From Clostridia bacterium (GTDB taxonomy: Bacteria > Bacillota > Clostridia > Oscillospirales > Acutalibacteraceae): 64,000 nt of DNA. Every line of letters begins with the position of its first letter. Within the stretch, counting starts at the first letter, position 1. The stretch covers positions 34,781-98,780 of the forward strand of contig JAFTXJ010000018.1 in assembly GCA_017461625.1 (NCBI GenBank). The letters are read 5' to 3'. The position numbers and the translations under genes were made by a program. A model generated the notes under the pieces. It searched no databases. It saw nothing but the letters and a program-made list of their open reading frames with translations, and was not told the origin of the DNA. This document shows, piece by piece, positions 2,940 to 35,649 of the stretch.

Positions 2940-3632
2940 TCAAAATTTTACAATCAATTTGGGGCAAAAATTTAGGTAATCTCCCGAAACCAGGTGAAAT
3001 TTAATCGAGAACATCTCATCATTGAATGCAAAAGTGGTTGAATAGCCATGTAAATGACCATAATAACACTGTGAAACTCCGCCGTTTATAAGCTCATCAC
3101 AAATCTCCTGACAGACCTGTCCGCCTGCAATTGGCGGATAATGCAAAAATGCAATTTTTTCACCGCCTAATTTGTCAGCCTCCTGAATGGACATTCTGAG
3201 CCTGCCTGCTTCACGGGCAACGATTTTTTTATCCGCCTGCTTGTCACTGTCAAAAAACCAACCACGGCTGCCGCAAATGGCATAATCGCCCACCTTATAA
3301 GCATTATTATTAAGTATTTTTATGGTAGTAATTCCGTTTTCTTCAAAAAATTTGTCAGCCTTTTTCTTCGTTGACCACCAATAATCGTGGTTACCTTTTA
3401 ATATAATTTTTTCTCCGGGCAAATTATCAAGGAATTTGAAATCCTCCAATGCCTCTTCCATAGTCATCCCCCATGTTATGTCACCGGGGATTACAACGGT
3501 ATCATTGTCTTTAACAATAGCTCGCCAGTTTTTTTCAAGCTTTTGTTCAAAATTTTCCCATCCCGAAAAAATATCCATCGGCTTATCTGTACCGAAAGAA
3601 AGATGAGTATCACCTATTGCAAATAAAGACAT
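2940..3632 (-). CDS. Metallophosphoesterase family protein
   Basis: Motifs GDTH, GDITWG and GNHDYW. Start moved to MSLFAIGDTH (ATG 3632), which has GAGGTG 6 nt upstream. The ORF-track start at 3647 lacks an SD. Confidence 0.8.
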   Translation of the reverse strand: MSLFAIGDTHLSFGTDKPMDIFSGWENFEQKLEKNWRAIVKDNDTVVIPGDITWGMTMEEALEDFKFLDNLPGEKIILKGNHDYWWSTKKKADKFFEENGITTIKILNNNAYKVGDYAICGSRGWFFDSDKQADKKIVAREAGRLRMSIQEADKLGGEKIAFLHYPPIAGGQVCQEICDELINGGVSQCYYGHLHGYSTTFAFNDEMFSIKFHLVSGDYLNFCPKLIVKF

Positions 3633-3711
3633 TCTGACACCTCGCATATAACGAATTTTTTTGTTAAAAATAATTAAGGGTAAAGCCCAATAATAAACGG
3701 AGGTTAATATT

Positions 3712-3879
3712 ATGCGTCACGAAATCAAAGACATCAAATGTAATGTAAGTCATTGCATTTACAACGAAAACAACTGCAAATGCACTGCAGGTTCAATCGA
3801 AGTAGGCCCTTCAAGTGCCTGCAGCTGCTCAGAAACACTTTGTGCAACATTTGAGCCAAACACAAATATGACAAAATAA
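3712..3879 (+). CDS. Small Cys-rich protein, DUF1540-like (55 aa)
   Basis: Hand translation: MRHEIKDIKCNVSHCIYNENNCKCTAGSIEVGPSSACSCSETLCATFEPNTNMTK. GGAGG lies 7 nt upstream and a terminator follows. It is below the ORF-track length cutoff. Confidence 0.7.
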   Translation: MRHEIKDIKCNVSHCIYNENNCKCTAGSIEVGPSSACSCSETLCATFEPNTNMTK

Positions 3880-7438: not shown

Positions 7439-7990
7439 TTATTCAAAATATGCAAACTGATCAAACGGCAACACCCTGAAAAGAACCTTGCCGATGATAT
7501 ATCTTTCGTCAATCATACCAATAGCTGTTGAACGGCTGTCGGTAGAGTCGTTTCTGTTGTCGCCCATAGCAAAAATGCATCCCTCGGGAACAACCACCGG
7601 GAAGTTAACATCCTGCTTTGTGGTGGTACGCTCTGCGATATAATCCTCTTGCAAAAGCTCACCGTCAACAAAAACATCGCCTGTTTCAAAATCTATATCA
7701 ACCGTCTGCCCACCTGTTGCAATCACACGCTTAACAATCGGTTCGTTAAAAGCATTTGGTTGGGTGCTGATAATAATATCACCGTATTTATACTCTGTGT
7801 TTATTGCACGCACAAGCAACCAATCATTTTCATAAAGGGTGGGGTTCATTGAATCACCCACAACACCGACAAACCTGAAGAAAAAGGTAAACACTACCAT
7901 TATAACCACAAGTGCAGTGCATATAATTGAAACTAAATCATATGCAAACGGTTGTTTTATTTCCTTTTGATTCTGTTGTTCTTCGTTCAT
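7439..7990 (-). CDS. lepB: Signal peptidase I (copy 2)
   Basis: 183 aa with an N-terminal TM segment, the GDSMNPTL Ser box and GDNRNDSTDSR. Confidence 0.93.
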   Translation of the reverse strand: MNEEQQNQKEIKQPFAYDLVSIICTALVVIMVVFTFFFRFVGVVGDSMNPTLYENDWLLVRAINTEYKYGDIIISTQPNAFNEPIVKRVIATGGQTVDIDFETGDVFVDGELLQEDYIAERTTTKQDVNFPVVVPEGCIFAMGDNRNDSTDSRSTAIGMIDERYIIGKVLFRVLPFDQFAYFE

Positions 7991-8002
7991 TAAAAAGACC
8001 TC

Positions 8003-8626
8003 TTATTCTTCGCCGTAATACTCTTCATTAAAAAGCTTAATCTCATCAAAAGGTAAAATTCTTATAAAAGCTTTACCAAGAATATATCTCTCATCAATCG
8101 GACCGATTCTGGAAGAACGGCTGTCGAGAGAGTCGTTTCGGTTGTCCCCCATAGCAAAGACGCATCCCTCGGGAACATGATACGGAAAATCAACATCATA
8201 AGAAAGTGATGTTGGCTCAAATATGTAAGGCTCATCAAGAACCTTGCCGTTAACAGTAACCTCATGAGTGTTAAAATCAATATCAATTGTTTCACCACCA
8301 AGAGCAATAATTCTCTTAACCAAAGGCTCATTTCTGTCATTCGGCTGTGTGATTATAATTATATCCCCACGTTCATATTCACTCTCTGCTGAAACAAGCA
8401 ACCAATCACCGTCAGCAAGGGTTGGCACCATTGAACTACCCACAACGCTTACAGCTCTGAACATAAAAGTGAATATAACAAAAATTATAACAAGCGCTGA
8501 AAGAATTGACCCTGCCATATCATAAGCCTGATACCACTTTTTACGCTTGGACTCTGCCTGCTCAGGAGTTAATCCGCCCGGGTAATATTTGATTTTTGAA
8601 GTTTCTGTATGTCTGTAATTATACAA
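8003..8626 (-). CDS. lepB: Signal peptidase I (copy 1)
   Basis: GSSMVPTL and GDNRNDSLDSR boxes. The start is uncertain. The rplS terminator occupies 8652-8691, so the 8695 start is untenable. In-frame TTG 8626 has GGAGG 8 nt upstream, whereas ATG 8647 has no SD. Confidence 0.85.
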   Translation of the reverse strand: MYNYRHTETSKIKYYPGGLTPEQAESKRKKWYQAYDMAGSILSALVIIFVIFTFMFRAVSVVGSSMVPTLADGDWLLVSAESEYERGDIIIITQPNDRNEPLVKRIIALGGETIDIDFNTHEVTVNGKVLDEPYIFEPTSLSYDVDFPYHVPEGCVFAMGDNRNDSLDSRSSRIGPIDERYILGKAFIRILPFDEIKLFNEEYYGEE

Positions 8627-9238: not shown

Positions 9239-9913
9239 CTAACAAAAACTTTTTCCGCTTGCGGTCAGCAAGTCTTCACGCACAATATATTGTTGTTTTG
9301 AGGATATTTGTATATTCTTTTCAAGAGTTTCAATTAAAAGTGCAGGGTTAAGGTTGACAGAATTTCCCGCAGCAAGGTTAAGCGAAAGTAAAATTCGGTT
9401 ACCGTCAAGAGTAAGCTCTTTTTCAAAAATCTGCTCAATTAAGTTAACCTGCTTAAGCACTTTTCGGTGACCCTTTTTGCCCATCTTCTCAGCCATAAGC
9501 TCTTCGCCGTTCATAAGTGCATCTGCACTGTAATAAAAATTCTCCGCTTCATCGGCGTTCGCAAATTCAAGAGTAACGGCATATTTGGCACTTGCAATTT
9601 CATTGGCATTAAAAACAGGGTCTTTAACGCTTACAATCCCTACACCCTCAGGCATAACGGCTTTGAGTGCATCTTCAACCTGAGCGTTTGTCATATCACC
9701 CTCGATTCTGATATCCATATATTCACAGTCACTGCTCTGACCCAAAGAAAGAGGAAGTGCAAATGCGATATACGGATGAGGGTTAAATCCTTCGGTGTAC
9801 CACATAGGAAGCTTGGCCCTGCGAACAGCTCTTGTCATAAGGCGGTTAACATCAAGGTGAGAAATATAAATCATTCTGCCTGTTTTTGAAAATCTGATTC
9901 TAACACATCGCAT
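9239..9913 (-). CDS. TIGR03936-family radical SAM-associated protein (DUF2344)
   Basis: Start set at MRCVRIRFSKTGRMIYISHLD (ATG 9913), overlapping the stop of the upstream radical SAM gene. This is the conserved TIGR03960/TIGR03936 pairing. Confidence 0.85.
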   Translation of the reverse strand: MRCVRIRFSKTGRMIYISHLDVNRLMTRAVRRAKLPMWYTEGFNPHPYIAFALPLSLGQSSDCEYMDIRIEGDMTNAQVEDALKAVMPEGVGIVSVKDPVFNANEIASAKYAVTLEFANADEAENFYYSADALMNGEELMAEKMGKKGHRKVLKQVNLIEQIFEKELTLDGNRILLSLNLAAGNSVNLNPALLIETLEKNIQISSKQQYIVREDLLTASGKSFC

Positions 9914-11744
9914 GGCACTCACCTCCGTTGAGCTTGTTCGCTCCGCAGCCTGCACATTTTTCACGGCAGTTTTTGGTTGTTTCACTTCTGTGAGCCTTTT
10001 CATTCTCTTTCATAAGGAATTTTTTGCTCACACCGTAATCAAGATGATCCCAAGGAAGAATTTCATCAAAGCTTCTGCGACGGTTAGCATAGAAAGCAGG
10101 ATCAATTCCGCATTCTTCAAAAGCTTCCATCCACTTACCGAAATCGAACTGATTATCCCAACCGTCAAAACGGCAACCCTTTTTCCATGCAAGCTCCATA
10201 ACCTTAGAAAGTCGGCGGTCACCTCTTGCAAACACACCCTCCAAAAAGCTGGTTGGAGTCAGGTGAGTGCTGATATTTATTTTTTTAGTGGTCACGCTTT
10301 CAAGAAGATGCTTTTGCTTTTCTTGGAGCTGTTCCATTGTGTCCTGAGGCTCCCACTGGAAAGGAGTGAATGGCTTGGGAACAAAAGAAGAAGCACTGAT
10401 ATTAACGGTAACGCCCTTGCCCTTCGGCTTATCGGGGTTCTGATAAAAAGCATTTACAACTTTTTGACCAAGCTCAGCAATACCTGCAACATCATCCAAA
10501 GTTTCGGTAGGAAGACCAATCATAAAATAAAGCTTAACCCCGGTCCAGCCACCGCTGAATGCTTTTTTAACAGTTTCCATAACTTCGTCTTCAGTGACGT
10601 TTTTGTTGATAGCATCACGAAGTCGCTGTGTGCCTGCTTCAGGGGCAAAGGTAAGACCAGCACGTCTTACGGCAGTGAGTTTTTGCATAAGCTCGTCTGA
10701 AAAATTATCCACACGAAGTGACGGCAAAGCAACATTGATTTTGTCATCAATAGTCCAGCTCAACAATTTATCAAGAAGCGGCTCAATCTGAGTGTAGTCA
10801 CTTGTACTAAGGGAGCAAAGTGAAATTTCATCGTAGCCTGAGGTTTCACAAAGGCACTTGCTCTGGCTTTCAACCACATCTGCACTTTTTTCTCGGATTG
10901 GCCTGTAAATAAAACCCGCCTGACAGAAACGGCAGCCTCTGATACAGCCCCTGAAAATTTCAGCAGTTACTCTGTCGTGAACAATTTCGATTGACGGAAC
11001 TATAAACGACTTGGGATAAAAAGCTTTATCCAAATCCCTAACTACTCTTTTAACTGCTTTTTGGGGAGCAGTATATTTGGGAGTTACGCTTTTTATTGTG
11101 TTATCTTCATTATACTCCACATCATAAAGCGAAGGGACATAAAATCCGTCGATTTTTGCAACCTCACAAAGAAACTCAAACTTTGACGAGCCTTTTTTCT
11201 TATGCTCTTTGAGTAAATCAAGAAGCTCGTTTGTTATTTCTTCACCTTCACCGAGCATAACCACATCAATAAAATCGGCAATTGGCTCAGCGTTGCACAC
11301 ACAAGGACCACCTGCTACAACCAATGGTGTAAGACTCTCGCGGTCTTTTGAATAAAGCGGCACCTGTGCAAGGTCAAGCATATTCAGAACATTGGAAAAG
11401 CTCAACTCATACTGAAGTGTGAAACCGATCATGTCAAAATCCTTGATTGGGTCACCGCTTTCAAGAGCATAGAGAGGAATATTGTTTTCTCTCATCTGCT
11501 CTTCCATATCTACCCAAGGGGCAAACACACGCTCACATCAGGCATCCTCACGTTCATTAACGAGCGAATATAAAATTTTCATTCCAAGGTGAGACATTCC
11601 GATTTCGTATGTATCAGGAAAACAGAATGCATAACGCAAATCAACCTTGTTTTTGTCTTTAATAACGCTGTTAAGCTCACCGCCCACATATCTGCCCGGC
11701 TTCTGAACTTTCAGCAAAATATTTTCTACCTTCTGTGGAATCAT
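9900..11744 (-). pseudogene. TIGR03960-type B12-binding-domain radical SAM protein, interrupted by a single in-frame TGA (11538-11540)
   Basis: ORFs 11538..11744 and 9900..11528 are in the same frame. Read-through gives ...LVNEREDA*CERVFAPWVDMEE. The CxxxCxxC cluster is RGCIRGCRFCQAG. Total length is 614 codons. Confidence 0.8.
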
Positions 11745-11755
11745 AAAACTTTCCT

Positions 11756-12115
11756 TTACTGTTTAATTCTTTGTTTAACTTGTGTGTCAATATATTGGCA
11801 CACACCTTCAAAATTACGGTCAATATCAAGATTGCAAATTCGCAAAATCTTTAAGCCCAACCGTTCAAGCTCTTCACTTCGCAATTTATCTTTTAATATT
11901 TGCTCCTGTGCATAGTGACCTCCGCCGTCAAGCTCAATAACTAACTGAGCCTTTGCACAATAAAAATCAACAATATACTCACCTATTGCCTTTTGCCGTT
12001 GAAAATGAGTAGGATAATTTCGCAAAAAATCATACCATAACTTGCGTTCCCACGGAGTCATATTTTTGCGTAGGTTTTTGGCAAGAGGAATGTTGTTTTT
12101 GTTGTATTCTTTCAT
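11756..12115 (-). CDS. DUF559 (Vsr-like endonuclease fold) domain protein
   Basis: NLRKNMTPWERKLWYDFLR...FQRQKAIGEYIVDFYC...LVIELDGGGH. ATG 12115 is preceded by AGGTGG. The ORF-track first codon is a GTG inside that SD. Confidence 0.85.
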   Translation of the reverse strand: MKEYNKNNIPLAKNLRKNMTPWERKLWYDFLRNYPTHFQRQKAIGEYIVDFYCAKAQLVIELDGGGHYAQEQILKDKLRSEELERLGLKILRICNLDIDRNFEGVCQYIDTQVKQRIKQ

Positions 12116-12124
12116 AATTGCCAC

Positions 12125-12271
12125 CTGAAAAACTCAATCTAAAGTGGCTCCCCTTGTCAGGGGAGCTGTCGCAAAGCGACTGAGGGGTAGTCTGCTCGGA
12201 GTATCTCTCCCTCCGTCTTTTGCTTCGCAAAATCCACCTCCCTCATCAGAGGGAGGCAAGGAAGTCTTTTA
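12125..12271. repeat. GC-rich multi-hairpin palindromic element between the two AT-rich island genes
   Basis: Hairpins: GCTCCCC-ttgtca-GGGGAGC (12147-12166), GTCGC-aaa-GCGAC (12168-12180) and CCTCCCTC-atca-GAGGGAGG (12237-12256). A second CTCCCTC at 12207-12213 offers alternative pairing. About 53% GC in two hand-counted 60-nt lines. Confidence 0.7.
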
Positions 12272-13792
12272 TCATAGTGCAACTAAATCCGCATTAAATC
12301 TTCCGTTCTGCTTAAAGATACCTAAAGGTAATGTTTCCGAATCGTTTCCGTGATTTACTTTCCATTTTTCTGCTAAATCTTTTAATTCTTTTGCTGTAAT
12401 CAAAAGAATTATCGTATCACTAGTCAAAGCATATTTTGCACATTCTTTAGCTGAATCAGCCGTGAATTCAGGACCAATAACCATAAAAACAGAAACTGGT
12501 TTTGTTGAGTTAGTGATATACCTATCAAACTGCTTAATATGTTCAGCCAAAGATACTTGCATTTCTTTTGACTTGTTATCCCACATTATGAGTTTATCAT
12601 TGAACGAAAGTATCCCGTCAGGATGCTCTGTTCCACTCATAATCAAAGGTTTAATTTTAAATATTTTTTCAAATATATAGTTCGTAGCAGCTTCAAATTT
12701 ATGCTCGCACTCTAAATCTTTCGAAATAACACCTTGCTGATGAAGAACCTGCAAATTTCTTGAAGCCAAATCGACGAAATAATGGTAATACAGTTCTCTT
12801 TCATCTTCTTCGGAAACTTCTATTTGCTTTATTTCGTCATAATAAGATATTATTCGATTTATCAATTCAGGCTTCGTACCATAAGTGGTAAGACCTAAGG
12901 CTCCACACCATTCAGACAATGAGCCTTTATCTAAACCGTCATTCGCCGAAAATCCACCAATAAGCTGATGCGCTGTAAGATTTTTTACAACCAATTCTTT
13001 AAGCTCGGTAAGATTTGGATTGCTTGGCAATCTAACCTTACCCTTAGTCAACATATCAATAAGATATTTTTTACTCTTTACATACTTACTTTCTATCAAA
13101 GAGAGAAATGATGATTCCTTGATGTCTATGTTAAAAATATTCCTCAAACAACTTGCAACTTCCTCGGGGATTACATCATAATCAACACCGCTTGAATCTC
13201 TGACGGGAACGATAAGACCCTTAGATTGCAATAATCTTCTTACATCCGAAATATCATCTCTTGAATGAACAATGTTATTGGTTGTAGGGAACTTTCCAAT
13301 CTGAGCCTCCAAAATTTGGTGATGTTTTTCTGTTATACCCATTCTCTTGCGAATTTTATTGATAAGATTTTGTTCATCAACCGAAACATCGTCATTGTTA
13401 TCCCAAGCGGCATCAACAACATATTTATAAAAATCAATATCCTCTATTTCAGAGTCAAGAGCAAATTCATTTGCAAGGTCTATTATATCCTGCTCATAAT
13501 CTACTACTTTATATTCTGTTGCATTAAGTGTTTCAGTAAAATCATCACAATTCAAAAGAATACTCTTGATTATAATACTGAATAAAATTCTATTATTTCT
13601 ATTAGGATTAAGTTCAAAAAACTCAACTACATTCCTAATATTTTCCTCATTAGAATATTGCGGAGCAGTTTTTACTACAGCTGCTTTCAATTCGTCAAAA
13701 CTTAGTCTTTTGTAATCAATTACATATTCATTTGCTACTCTTTTTAAATCTGTAAAAGTCGAAACATTTGCAACACAATCCTTAAATTTCAT
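12272..13792 (-). CDS. Uncharacterised 506-aa protein: N-terminal helical region, SAP-like DNA-binding motif(s), C-terminal FokI-like PD-(D/E)xK nuclease module
   Basis: Residues 291-318 are LSEWCGALGLTTYGTKPELINRIISYY (SAP-like). Residues 361-407 are ECEHKFEAA...GTEHPDGILSFNDKLIMWDNK (E...PD...DxK). No NTPase motif is present. Strongly AT-rich coding sequence. Confidence 0.6.
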   Translation of the reverse strand: MKFKDCVANVSTFTDLKRVANEYVIDYKRLSFDELKAAVVKTAPQYSNEENIRNVVEFFELNPNRNNRILFSIIIKSILLNCDDFTETLNATEYKVVDYEQDIIDLANEFALDSEIEDIDFYKYVVDAAWDNNDDVSVDEQNLINKIRKRMGITEKHHQILEAQIGKFPTTNNIVHSRDDISDVRRLLQSKGLIVPVRDSSGVDYDVIPEEVASCLRNIFNIDIKESSFLSLIESKYVKSKKYLIDMLTKGKVRLPSNPNLTELKELVVKNLTAHQLIGGFSANDGLDKGSLSEWCGALGLTTYGTKPELINRIISYYDEIKQIEVSEEDERELYYHYFVDLASRNLQVLHQQGVISKDLECEHKFEAATNYIFEKIFKIKPLIMSGTEHPDGILSFNDKLIMWDNKSKEMQVSLAEHIKQFDRYITNSTKPVSVFMVIGPEFTADSAKECAKYALTSDTIILLITAKELKDLAEKWKVNHGNDSETLPLGIFKQNGRFNADLVAL

Positions 13793-13837
13793 AAAATGTC
13801 CTCATCTTTCTTTGTTTTACATACAATAACATCTTTT

Positions 13838-33443: not shown

Positions 33444-33530
33444 AAAAGGAGCTCCTTCCAATATCGCCGTCTGCCAAAAGGTATGCTGTCACGATAAAAT
33501 AAATTTGGGACATTCACAACCCATGGCGGT

Positions 33531-33560
33531 ATTATATCACACAAATATTTTATATATCAA
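33531..33560 (-). promoter_or_regulatory. Putative purC promoter
   Basis: On the minus strand: TTGATA, 18 nt, TGaTATAAT (extended -10). Confidence 0.45.
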
Positions 33561-33688
33561 CAAAAAATTACCCTTTTTTCAAATTTTTATTTCATTTATA
33601 ATTATTTGCACTGATATGCCACATCTTTTGTATGTATTTACAAAAAAAGTTTCTTCTAATGACTCTTTTATCAAAGTTTTCTTTTTGA

Positions 33689-33717
33689 TTGCAAAAACTA
33701 TATATGTTTGCTATAAT
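33689..33717 (+). promoter_or_regulatory. Putative promoter of the tagF-like operon
   Basis: TTGCAA, 17 nt, TATAAT, about 35 nt upstream of ATG 33753. Confidence 0.45.
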
Positions 33718-33752
33718 GTGTATATATAAATATTCAAGGAGTGTTAACATAA

Positions 33753-34904
33753 ATGAGAGAAAAGCTTTCAGTGTTTTGCTTTAACTTAATCAAATTTATC
33801 ACTGCACTTTTACCATTTAAAAACAATATAATTTTTGAAAGCAACCCTATCTTCGCAGACAACGCTTTTGCTGTTTATAAAGAATTTTTAAAACGCGGAT
33901 ATAATAAAAAATATAAACTGATATGGTTAATTAACGGAAATAATTATTCCGACACCCTGCCTTACAACGTTTCTGTTGTTAAACGAGACGGTTCACTTTC
34001 AGAAAAACTTATATACTATTGGATACTCTCTCGGTCAAAGTTCATTATCGATTCTAACAATTTTGTAAAAAAAGTTCATAGAAGGCAAATTCGCATACAT
34101 CTCAAGCACGGACTACCCATAAAAGATGCATCTCAATATACCAAAACAATCGGCGAATTAGATGTGCTATGCGTTCCGTCTGATTATTGGATTAACGTAA
34201 GTGCCAAAGAGCATAATGTTGATCCGTCAGTTATCAAGCCATTGGGCTTCCCCAGAAACGACGTACTCGTTCCTCATCCGCATGAGTTTAAAACAATCAT
34301 GTGGATGCCGACCTTCCGTAAAAACTCATTGGACACGGAATCTGATATTCATTTCGATTTCAACTCCATAATGCCACTTGGTCTTCCGTTTATTTCAAAT
34401 ATTGAATCATTGCAAAAAATAAACGAACTTTTTAAAACTAATAACGCATATCTGCTTGTGCGACTTCATCCGGCACAGGACCTTTCGGGCATCTCTCTTT
34501 CAGAGATGTCGAATGTGAAAATTTGTAATGATGAATTTATAAAAAGTCATAACACCTCACTGTATAAAATTCTTACTTACACTGATGCTTTGATTTCGGA
34601 TTACTCTTCAATTTATTATGACTATCTTCTTTTAAACAAGCCCATTGCTTTGGCAACATTTGATTTTGAACATTACAAAAATCACAACGGCATCATTGTC
34701 AAAAATTATGATGAATTCAAAAAAGCTTTTCCCTCTGTTTTTGTTGAAAGCTTTGATGATTTAATTGCATTTTTCACTGATATTTTTAACGATAATCCCG
34801 ATGCGTATAAATGTGCCGAGGCAAAAGAACGATATATGAAAGATTGCGATTCACATTCAGCAGAAAAAATCGTTGATTACATAGCCAACAACTATAAATT
34901 ATAA
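33753..34904 (+). CDS. CDP-glycerol glycerophosphotransferase family protein (TagB/TagF-like)
   Basis: 383 aa with family-typical LISDYSSIYYDYLLLNKPI and HP...L region. Confidence 0.85.
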   Translation: MREKLSVFCFNLIKFITALLPFKNNIIFESNPIFADNAFAVYKEFLKRGYNKKYKLIWLINGNNYSDTLPYNVSVVKRDGSLSEKLIYYWILSRSKFIIDSNNFVKKVHRRQIRIHLKHGLPIKDASQYTKTIGELDVLCVPSDYWINVSAKEHNVDPSVIKPLGFPRNDVLVPHPHEFKTIMWMPTFRKNSLDTESDIHFDFNSIMPLGLPFISNIESLQKINELFKTNNAYLLVRLHPAQDLSGISLSEMSNVKICNDEFIKSHNTSLYKILTYTDALISDYSSIYYDYLLLNKPIALATFDFEHYKNHNGIIVKNYDEFKKAFPSVFVESFDDLIAFFTDIFNDNPDAYKCAEAKERYMKDCDSHSAEKIVDYIANNYKL

Positions 34905-34916
34905 AGGGTGAAGTAT

Positions 34917-35567
34917 ATGAATATTGCTTTAATCTTAAGTGGTGGAGTCGGAAAAAGATTTGCTTCAGATTTGCCGAAACAATATAACTTAATTAACGGA
35001 AAGCCTGTTATTGATTATGTTATTGAGGCTTGCCAAAACTCAAAGCTTACAGATAAAGTTATAGTAGTTTGTGACCCCTCGTGTAAACAATTCAGCAAAT
35101 ACCTTGAAAACGATGAAGTCGAAACTATTGTTAACGGTAAAGAACGCTATGACTCATTGAACAACGGTATCGAATTCATCAAAGAGCATTATAATTGCAA
35201 AAATATCTGTATCCTTGATGCTGCAGCACCGCTGGTTTATCCGGGTCTGCTTGATGAATATTTCACAAAGCTTGATGAATACGAGTGTGCAATAACCTGC
35301 AGAAAAATCACAGGCGAAATAGGAAATTATCATAATGACATTTTTGTAAGAGACGATTACTATCTGATGCAATCACCCGAAGCATTTCATTTTGAGCTTA
35401 TAACTAAACATTTTCGTCCGGATTTTTATTCTTCGGAGCTTGTTTATCAAATGCCTAAAGAAACCACGCGTTATCTAAACTTTAACTTTAATCATCACAT
35501 AAAAATCACTTACGACACTGACTTGATTTGTGCAGAGGCATTGATAAATTATTTTAGCAACAAATAA
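34917..35567 (+). CDS. IspD/TarI-family sugar-phosphate cytidylyltransferase
   Basis: MNIALILSGGVGKRF...PKQY. ATG 34917 follows AAGGGTGAAG. Confidence 0.8.
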   Translation: MNIALILSGGVGKRFASDLPKQYNLINGKPVIDYVIEACQNSKLTDKVIVVCDPSCKQFSKYLENDEVETIVNGKERYDSLNNGIEFIKEHYNCKNICILDAAAPLVYPGLLDEYFTKLDEYECAITCRKITGEIGNYHNDIFVRDDYYLMQSPEAFHFELITKHFRPDFYSSELVYQMPKETTRYLNFNFNHHIKITYDTDLICAEALINYFSNK

Positions 35568-35649
35568 CATTCTTTATCCAATATTTACTTGCCAAATGAG
35601 AAAAAATCAGGTATAATCTTTTTAATATTCTTTTGAAAGGGCGGATATC

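Follow-up and report, generated by a model that had tools for sequence, protein, structure and literature searches.

In the 64,000-nucleotide (nt) stretch of a Clostridia bacterium contig considered here (the window), a minus-strand run of housekeeping genes is interrupted between mutS2 and a radical-SAM gene by an inserted block of 2,075 bp (11763..13837, minus strand). The block contains a gene for a 506-amino-acid (506-aa) protein with a FokI-type cleavage domain, a GC-rich palindromic element, and a gene for a 122-aa protein of the DUF559 family. It is a lineage-specific, horizontally acquired insertion of foreign origin. We consider it probable that the insertion is a composite, the three parts of which do not form one system. 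As an event the island is nothing unusual, a small block of accessory genes acquired by horizontal transfer. Both of its genes belong to widespread, mobile and unstudied families, and the association of DUF559 genes with the arms of the palindromic element may be of wider interest.

The empty site is present in four relatives (L018-L021), obtained as contigs in a mutS2 homologue search, with mutS2 94, 93, 91 and 82% identical to that of the window. In all four no gene intervenes between mutS2 and the radical-SAM gene, the spacer measuring 18, 11, 11 and 177 nt, and the stretch is therefore recognized as an insertion. It begins with the first base past the mutS2 stop codon and leaves 18 nt up to the radical-SAM ATG, and the 18-nt spacer of the closest relative, L018, ACAGTAAAGGAAAGTTTT, is the same base for base as window positions 11762-11745. 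The sequence TAAA is found at both junctions (13840-13837 and 11765-11762) and only once in the empty site, which leaves the borders ambiguous by 4 nt; it could be a 4-bp target duplication or a chance microhomology in AT-rich DNA. The same insert is present in conspecific metagenomic contigs that are 99.96% identical to the window.

The composition of the insert is also foreign. The G+C content is 26-36% across 12300-13800 versus 41-47% in the flanks, and amounts to 34.5% for the whole insert, 32.7% for the 506-aa gene (28.7% for its first 450 nt) and 36% for the DUF559 gene, against a window mean of 40.8%; relative to the other 2-kb windows of the 64-kb window the insert stands at z = -2.5. 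A similar AT-richness occurs elsewhere in the window, as the stretch 33500-35600, a teichoic-acid-type gene cluster, is even lower at 32.9% and has the lowest G+C content of the whole window. The products encoded there, a CDP-glycerol glycerophosphotransferase-like protein and an IspD/TarI-like cytidylyltransferase, are those of cell-wall polymer genes.

An earlier note on this DNA, made from the letters alone, had described an AT-rich block of about 2 kb interrupting the housekeeping run, with only nuclease-like genes separated by a GC-rich palindrome, and had proposed horizontal acquisition. The present analysis agrees with it on these points, and the synteny comparison which it suggested places mutS2 directly before the radical-SAM gene in relatives and defines the insertion borders. 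Its statement that the insert lacks an integrase, transposase, methyltransferase or ATPase also holds, none of these being present among the open-reading frames (ORFs) of the insert.

The 506-aa gene (12272..13792, minus strand) is preceded by a 45-nt leader (13793..13837, minus strand), which contains a GAGGA Shine-Dalgarno sequence and makes up the whole gap to mutS2. As the earlier note had also seen, there is no terminator-like site in this gap, which makes read-through from mutS2 plausible. A promoter scan of the region gave nothing above chance, and by eye a possible extended -10 (TGTTATTGT) can be discerned in the leader. Homologues of the gene elsewhere have their own TATAAT-like -10 at a comparable distance. 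Expression of the insert most likely depends on transcripts reading through from mutS2, perhaps with a contribution from a weak promoter within the insert.

The 506-aa gene and the DUF559 gene are independent of each other. Ten contexts of the 506-aa family besides the window, all of them different, were read, and the DUF559 gene and the GC-rich element are absent from each of them (within 6-8 kb). Similarly, none of 80 metagenomic loci with relatives of the window DUF559 contains a 506-aa homologue. The check for co-occurrence of the three parts that the earlier note had proposed thus gave a negative answer in these loci, the element going with DUF559 and not with the 506-aa gene, and the note's notion of one nuclease module is not upheld. 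Such a module, in which the 506-aa nuclease, the element and DUF559 would move as a unit with a defence or selfish role, is suggested by the placement of the parts side by side on the same strand, within one insert of 2,075 bp that has a single pair of borders, and by the nuclease-like nature of both products. It is largely refuted by the counts from the other loci, and we hold it to be very unlikely. The composite would instead have entered the short mutS2/radical-SAM spacer of a conserved operon in one arrival event or in several. For annotation, the lesson is that two nuclease genes can be neighbours within an insert without belonging to one system.

The 506-aa protein family

More than 541 relatives of the 506-aa protein were found in a word-indexed protein collection, nearly all of them 503-511 aa long and 49-79% identical over the full length. 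They are unnamed or annotated as hypothetical, and their named sources are Clostridia, Oscillospiraceae, Ruminococcus and Acutalibacteraceae. An exhaustive profile search gave 406 clusters (50% identity) at E <= 1e-3, some with ~100 extra N-terminal residues. With ~400 clusters the family is common in gut and rumen Clostridia, and it has distant relatives in haloarchaeal mobile elements.

The protein contains a winged-helix-like segment recognized from the secondary structure of the model (residues ~178-220; 13133..13261, minus strand), a SAP (helix-extension-helix) DNA-binding motif (residues 291-323; 12824..12922, minus strand; Pfam PF02037) and a C-terminal FokI-type PD-(D/E)XK cleavage domain (residues ~355-500; 12293..12730, minus strand; Pfam PF09254 and Foldseek). 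The SAP match of the window protein is weak (E = 2.5e-4, 21 bits against a cut-off of 23.9); the motif is matched in 25-27 of 31 homologues, the best at 1e-9, and in more distant family members at 8e-10. The match to FokI_cleav_dom, over residues 361-429, is likewise weak (E = 5e-4, 20 bits against a cut-off of 25), and this domain is matched in 25 of the 31 homologues at E <= 0.01, the best at 3.1e-5, with precomputed PF09254 matches for most homologues. The putative catalytic residues Asp392 (12617-12619), Asp405 (12578-12580) and Lys407 (12572-12574, all on the minus strand) are invariant in the 31 aligned sequences.

The AlphaFold2 model, built on the alignment of 31 sequences, has a predicted local distance difference test score (pLDDT) of 91.7 and a predicted template-modelling (TM) score of 0.80. 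In this model the catalytic residues lie on strands 393-397 and 400-406, and the PD...D-x-K motif is placed on an alpha-beta-beta-beta-alpha-beta core. The best PDB matches of the model in Foldseek are to FokI (2fok_B/1fok, E = 1.8e-7, probability 1.0), followed by Nt.BspD6I and then by the small catalytic subunit of R.BspD6I (2p14), with a TM-score of 0.53 on the target. A profile search with the family against PDB sequences gave only weak matches to SAP domains and did not reach FokI, and the comparison of the full-length model with predicted viral structures gave nothing below E = 1e-3. The motif and the fold together indicate that the 506-aa protein is probably a DNA endonuclease of an uncharacterised family with a novel helical N-terminal region.

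The predicted architecture is similar to that of FokI in several respects. The 506-aa protein shares the C-terminal PD-D-x-K domain with FokI and Nt.BspD6I/R.BspD6I (PDB codes 2fok, 1fok, 2ewf and 2p14), and like FokI it would combine an N-terminal, largely helical DNA-binding part with a separate cleavage domain in a chain of similar total length. Unlike FokI, it has a SAP motif between the N-terminal part and the cleavage domain, and its residues 1-285 show no match to the FokI recognition domain. Modelled alone, these residues are helical, with a pLDDT of 87. As they match nothing in the PDB, DNA binding by the protein and the type of its target are only inferred.

The neighbourhoods of the gene are varied. 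Five of the ten other contexts are among ordinary metabolic or housekeeping genes. Two are paralogues of one genome, the first beside an EcoRI-methylase-like gene (3.4 kb upstream), a GmrSD_N/HNH gene and a Gp49/HTH toxin-antitoxin pair, and the second beside a DUF4062 gene. One copy adjoins a tyrosine integrase on a contig that also encodes PcfJ, PcfK and a rolling-circle Rep protein. The remaining two are distant relatives, with 22-24% identity over residues 163-505, from Halorubrum virus Humcor1 and from a Natrinema megaplasmid, the latter near an integrase. No adjacent methyltransferase is present in the window or in the ten other contexts, the nearest being the EcoRI-methylase-like gene mentioned above. 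In every case the G+C content of the gene is below that of its surroundings, and the G+C content at third codon positions (GC3) is 22-31% in every host versus 34-89% for the host genes, one host, L001, showing 31% against 86-89%. Taken together, the contexts and the composition point to a self-contained gene that often moves between genomes. It is solitary and AT-rich throughout, and probably codes for a mobile stand-alone endonuclease, perhaps serving in defence.

In the proposed mode of action the winged-helix and SAP modules would bind DNA, and two FokI-type cleavage domains would pair to cut both strands, by analogy with FokI. Its most likely role would be that of a single-gene restriction-like nuclease, possibly modification-dependent, acting in defence or addiction. 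A stand-alone, restriction-like role is suggested because there is no methylase partner, the gene is carried on mobile elements, and defence genes are occasional neighbours. In being solitary, in having an N-terminal part that may act as sensor or DNA binder, and in being mobile-borne and sometimes placed beside defence genes, the protein resembles single-gene defence nucleases and Type IV enzymes. Unlike the known proteins of this kind, it matches no PADLOC model, and no known modified-base reader domain was detected in it. The earlier note could not match the supposed module to a named system, and no family covering the 506-aa protein was found in NCBIfam, PHROGs or PADLOC; with PADLOC-DB 2.0.0 the query itself had no match, and the 31 homologues gave scattered single weak matches. 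If the protein restricts phage or plasmid DNA, it would represent a new single-gene defence family, and the family might also be a source of a novel DNA-binding module joined to a FokI-like cutter.

DUF559 genes and the two-armed repeat

The DUF559 gene (11756..12124, minus strand) encodes a protein of the Vsr fold, a putative nuclease. Its 122-aa product matches Pfam PF04480 at 5e-27 (94.4 bits against a cut-off of 20.6) over profile positions 6-107 of 109. Unlike the E. coli YcjD equivalogs, it falls under the cut-off of NCBIfam NF007294 (66.7 bits against 218). The end of the ORF reads AAA CAG TAA, and its last codon and the stop are in the host spacer of the L018 type. Steczkiewicz et al. 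2012 (PMC3424549) assign DUF559 to the same group as Vsr and a homing endonuclease of a group I intron. Unlike Vsr, the window DUF559 has no nearby Dcm-type methylase, there being no methylase ORF in the insert, and unlike the Vsr-fold homing endonuclease I-Bth0305I it is not located inside an intron or intein.

The GC-rich intergenic element occupies the 147-nt spacer between the two genes (12125-12271) and folds much more stably than shuffled sequence (z = -4.8). It is made of two arms. Arm A (12205..12256, minus strand) comprises hairpin H1 (12256-12237, minus strand; CCTCCCTC tgat GAGGGAGG), TGG, a variable hairpin with a GCGAAGC core (12232-12217, minus strand) and ACGGAGGGAGAG. Arm B (12146..12187, minus strand) comprises CCCCTCAGTC, a small hairpin (GTCGC ttt GCGAC), GACAG and hairpin H3 (12166-12147, minus strand; GCTCCCCT gaca AGGGGAGC). 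In alignment, arm B is approximately the reverse complement of arm A, loops included, so that the two form an imperfect inverted repeat. The resulting A-B element is 111 nt long, intergenic and gene-less in the window, where it occurs as a single copy and consists of inverted repeats without coding capacity.

The repeat is widespread. The exact arm B pattern CCCCTCAGTC-N7-GACAGCTC, scanned in one genome per species, is present in at least 120 genome stretches from several phyla (Alphaproteobacteria, Chloroflexota, Bacillota, Bacteroidota and others). The matches listed include Caulobacter, Phenylobacterium, Dehalococcoidia, many Clostridia, Bacteroidales and Bifidobacterium, and among them arm B is usually followed by the same second hairpin and often preceded by arm A, several genomes having 2-5 copies of the repeat within the fetched loci. 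In the loci L022-L141 the hairpin-pair repeat is often found several times per locus, in A-B and B-A order (L022 6480-6640, L058, L138, L140 5680-6150). The small hairpin of arm B covaries (G-C 84, A-T 35, C-G 10, non-Watson-Crick 3; n=132), and for the variable hairpin of arm A a stem of 4 bp or more is formed by 18 of the 19 distinct sequences versus 19% of shuffles. The loops of the arm hairpins are GAA, GTA or GCA closed by C-G (GCGAAGC type). Loops of this C-GNA-G type are characteristic of highly stable DNA mini-hairpins, and thus speak for folded single-stranded DNA having a role.

Four independent short-read contigs (L007-L010) stop at the same base, equivalent to window position 12235, just after H1, as would be expected if assembly broke off where the sequence is repeated or strongly structured. 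These contig ends had suggested that H1 is the terminator of the 506-aa gene; this was dropped, as H1 is a conserved part of arm A in many genomes. A hammerhead ribozyme, suggested by CUGAUGAG in the H1 loop, was rejected as well, since there is no Rfam match and the motif is a plain hairpin loop. A search of Rfam at a permissive threshold with this region and eight element-bearing loci gave no family, only spurious sub-threshold matches to miRNA-precursor hairpins. In the locus L150 (3519-3586) a sub-threshold Gut-1 RNA motif (40.4 bits against a gathering threshold of 50, E = 1.5e-4) follows a DUF559 element at a distance of ~150 nt.

DUF559 genes and the arms are physically linked. Most of the DUF559 relatives with 66-77% identity to the window copy have arm A directly upstream of the ATG, its GGAGGGAGAG being the ribosome-binding site, and several of these have an ORF that extends into arm B and terminates there. 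Among more distant relatives, the gene is flanked by different pairs of GC-rich hairpins that are inverted with respect to each other. At 32 of 61 non-redundant loci a significant inverted repeat flanks the gene, with a score that none of 200 shuffles reached. Close to a DUF559 ORF (within 200 nt) the density of the A/B signature is 17 times that in the rest of the same loci. A Dehalococcoidia genome has the exact A-DUF559-B arrangement, and in a Tidjanibacter (Bacteroidota) genome the DUF559 gene is enclosed by an almost perfect inverted repeat built of hairpin pairs of this type; A-DUF559-B copies are thus seen in Bacillota, Chloroflexota and Bacteroidota. A description of the arms or of this link was not found in the searchable literature, which is not proof of its being undescribed.

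The ycjD gene of E. coli K-12 (DUF559; NC_000913.3 1351030-1351830, L226) has its GTG start codon inside a long perfect hairpin, and a second, GC-rich hairpin carries the stop codon in its loop. A duplicate of ~40 nt from the 3' end of the gene comes directly afterwards, and is followed by a GGGAGAGGG/GGGTGAGGGG palindromic repeat that resembles BoxC.

The position of the gene between the arms in relatives suggests that a selfish palindromic element carries DUF559 as its cargo and probably uses it as its nuclease. Arm A would supply the ribosome-binding site of the gene, and may also control translation through CCUCCC/GGAGGG pairing, while arm B would hold the stop codon. A wider reading, which we put forward tentatively and regard as possible rather than probable, is that DUF559 proteins are the nucleases of unrecognised palindromic selfish elements spanning phyla. 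A full copy would consist of arm A, DUF559 and arm B, and the far more numerous gene-less A-B copies, as in Caulobacter, Dehalococcoidia, Clostridia and Bacteroidota, would be miniature derivatives or sites into which the DUF559 gene homes. The GC-rich element of the window is a gene-less copy of the two-armed repeat, and the DUF559 gene, which sits just outside of it, has probably lost its own arms. The gene-less copy is located just upstream of DUF559, and the insert ends approximately where arm B would start.

Several named small palindromic intergenic repeats and miniature inverted-repeat transposable elements (MITEs) resemble the A-B element, among them repetitive extragenic palindromes (REP), bacterial interspersed mosaic elements (BIME), REPIN doublets, BoxC and Correia elements. 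Like REP, BIME and MITE repeats, the A-B element is ~110-140 bp long, contains short GC-rich hairpins, is intergenic and mostly gene-less, and occurs in 2-5 copies within the fetched loci of several genomes. REP-type repeats are usually lineage-specific, whereas the A-B core is common to several phyla. Moreover, the gene inside full A-B copies encodes a Vsr-fold nuclease rather than a RAYT or DDE transposase as in REP/MITE systems. DUF559 is a very large and old family of unknown function, and its link to a conserved hairpin-pair repeat leads to a testable hypothesis of a selfish element made of a nuclease and a repeat.

The composite reading and its alternatives

A number of observations weigh against the composite reading or against the roles assigned to its parts. 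The two Pfam matches of the 506-aa protein, SAP with 21 bits and FokI_cleav_dom with 20 bits, are under their curated cut-offs of 23.9 and 25, the whole-chain TM-score to FokI is low (0.27), and comparison of the N-terminal model (residues 1-285) with the PDB yielded nothing significant, the resemblances to winged-helix proteins of the ArsR/MarR/PadR type being weak (E >= 0.5). A defence role of this protein is deduced from the context in a minority of loci. The TAAA repeat at the borders could, as stated above, be a chance microhomology. The DUF559 copy in the window is not bracketed by arms (flanking inverted repeat z = -0.5), and a matched pair of filled and empty sites for the DUF559 element was not found among the fetched loci. 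Finally, a DUF559 gene is present in only 2 of the 120 arm B loci among the matches listed, from which it follows that most arm copies are gene-less.

A cognate methylase of the 506-aa protein might also be unlinked to it, in which case the protein would be the endonuclease of an ordinary Type IIS restriction-modification system with the methyltransferase encoded elsewhere in the genome. This would be in line with the structural matches, of which the best is FokI and the next the Type IIS nickase Nt.BspD6I, and with the EcoRI-methylase-like gene 3.4 kb upstream of one paralogue. Unlike in Type IIS restriction-modification, however, the gene has no methyltransferase beside it in any context read. 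The N-terminal region, moreover, is conserved along its entire length (50-79% identity), while recognition domains of restriction enzymes usually diverge, and it resembles neither the FokI recognition domain nor any PDB entry. We therefore regard this possibility as unlikely. The placement of the gene could also be explained by a free-standing homing-type selfish nuclease that cuts an empty intergenic site and is copied in by repair, given the exact insertion in an 11-18-nt spacer between conserved co-oriented genes, neither of which is damaged, the empty allele in relatives, and the solitary state and foreign composition of the gene everywhere. Such an origin appears improbable, as the insertion sites are wholly different between hosts, with no conserved target, one copy is plain cargo of an integrase-bearing element, and the window insert also carries DUF559 and the repeat; moreover, no homing endonuclease is known to have a FokI-type domain. 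The uniform length and high conservation of the family and the closeness of the gene to recO and mutS2 in the window might suggest a vertically inherited housekeeping protein of DNA repair or the chromosome, functionally placed beside mutS2. This is already contradicted, and hardly conceivable: relatives whose mutS2 is 82-94% identical lack the gene at this site, the other contexts all differ, the GC3 of 22-31% stands against as much as 89% in hosts, two paralogues exist in one genome and one copy resides on an integrative element.

For the GC-rich element, the alternative to a DNA repeat or mobile element is an RNA-level regulatory leader or terminator of DUF559 and nothing more, acting by sequestration of the ribosome-binding site through CCUCCC. 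In close relatives GGAGGGAGAG of arm A is positioned 3-4 nt before the ATG and H1 holds the matching CCUCCCUC strand, the long stem in the window, whose element folds at z = -4.8, has two G-U pairs, and H1 followed by TGGATTTTGC scores as terminator-like. A purely regulatory leader is nevertheless rather doubtful, since at least 118 of the 120 listed arm loci are without DUF559 and have the arms in both orders and orientations, often several per locus. The arms are also inverted copies of each other, loops included, the loops are of the type of very stable DNA mini-hairpins, and no Rfam family matches.

Host operon and strain differences

The order of genes on the minus strand is phoH, ybeY, dgkA, era, a 53-aa ORF, recO, mutS2 (13838-16228/16264), the insert, the radical-SAM gene, DUF2344, rplS and further housekeeping genes. 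The radical-SAM gene is split into two ORFs (11538-11744 and 9900-11528, minus strand) by an in-frame TGA (11538..11540, minus strand), which is outside the insertion. The earlier note had correctly recognized this premature stop and had made it part of the island pattern. The conspecific contigs L005 and L006, which have the same insert, show TGG at 11538-11540 and encode an intact 614-aa radical-SAM protein, so that the stop is unrelated to the insertion and represents either a private single-nucleotide change or an error of sequencing. Recoding of TGA was considered and rejected in view of the TGG in the conspecific contigs and of the TGA with which the 506-aa gene terminates.

The window differs from the 99.96%-identical contigs by only three mismatches in 8 kb, at 11538-11540, 13513 and 10154. 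All three replace a G of the coding strand, giving TGG->TGA and GAT->AAT in the radical-SAM gene and GAT->TAT in the 506-aa gene, the latter at a conserved acidic position. These differences could be strain variants or assembly errors.

Related sequences are found at other places in this operon. In the relative L021 (mutS2 82% identical) fragments of arm A and arm B are present in reverse orientation (3590-3790) between era and two extra ORFs for membrane proteins, and its mutS2/radical-SAM spacer (8389-8565) is 177 nt long instead of 11-18 nt. Intergenic sites of the operon thus seem to collect such elements. In a second, distant lineage with mutS2 55% identical, known from the metagenome contigs L181 (2974-3363), L182 and L204, a DUF559 gene 51-54% identical to the window copy begins ~31 nt after the mutS2 stop. 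Its presence downstream of mutS2 could reflect a shared insertion hot spot, a target preference or a coincidence.

Further along the operon, direct repeats 582-585 nt apart and 66-74% identical (window 7454-8497) correspond to two tandem paralogues of signal peptidase (S26) downstream of rplS, and the same tandem pair is also present in relatives.

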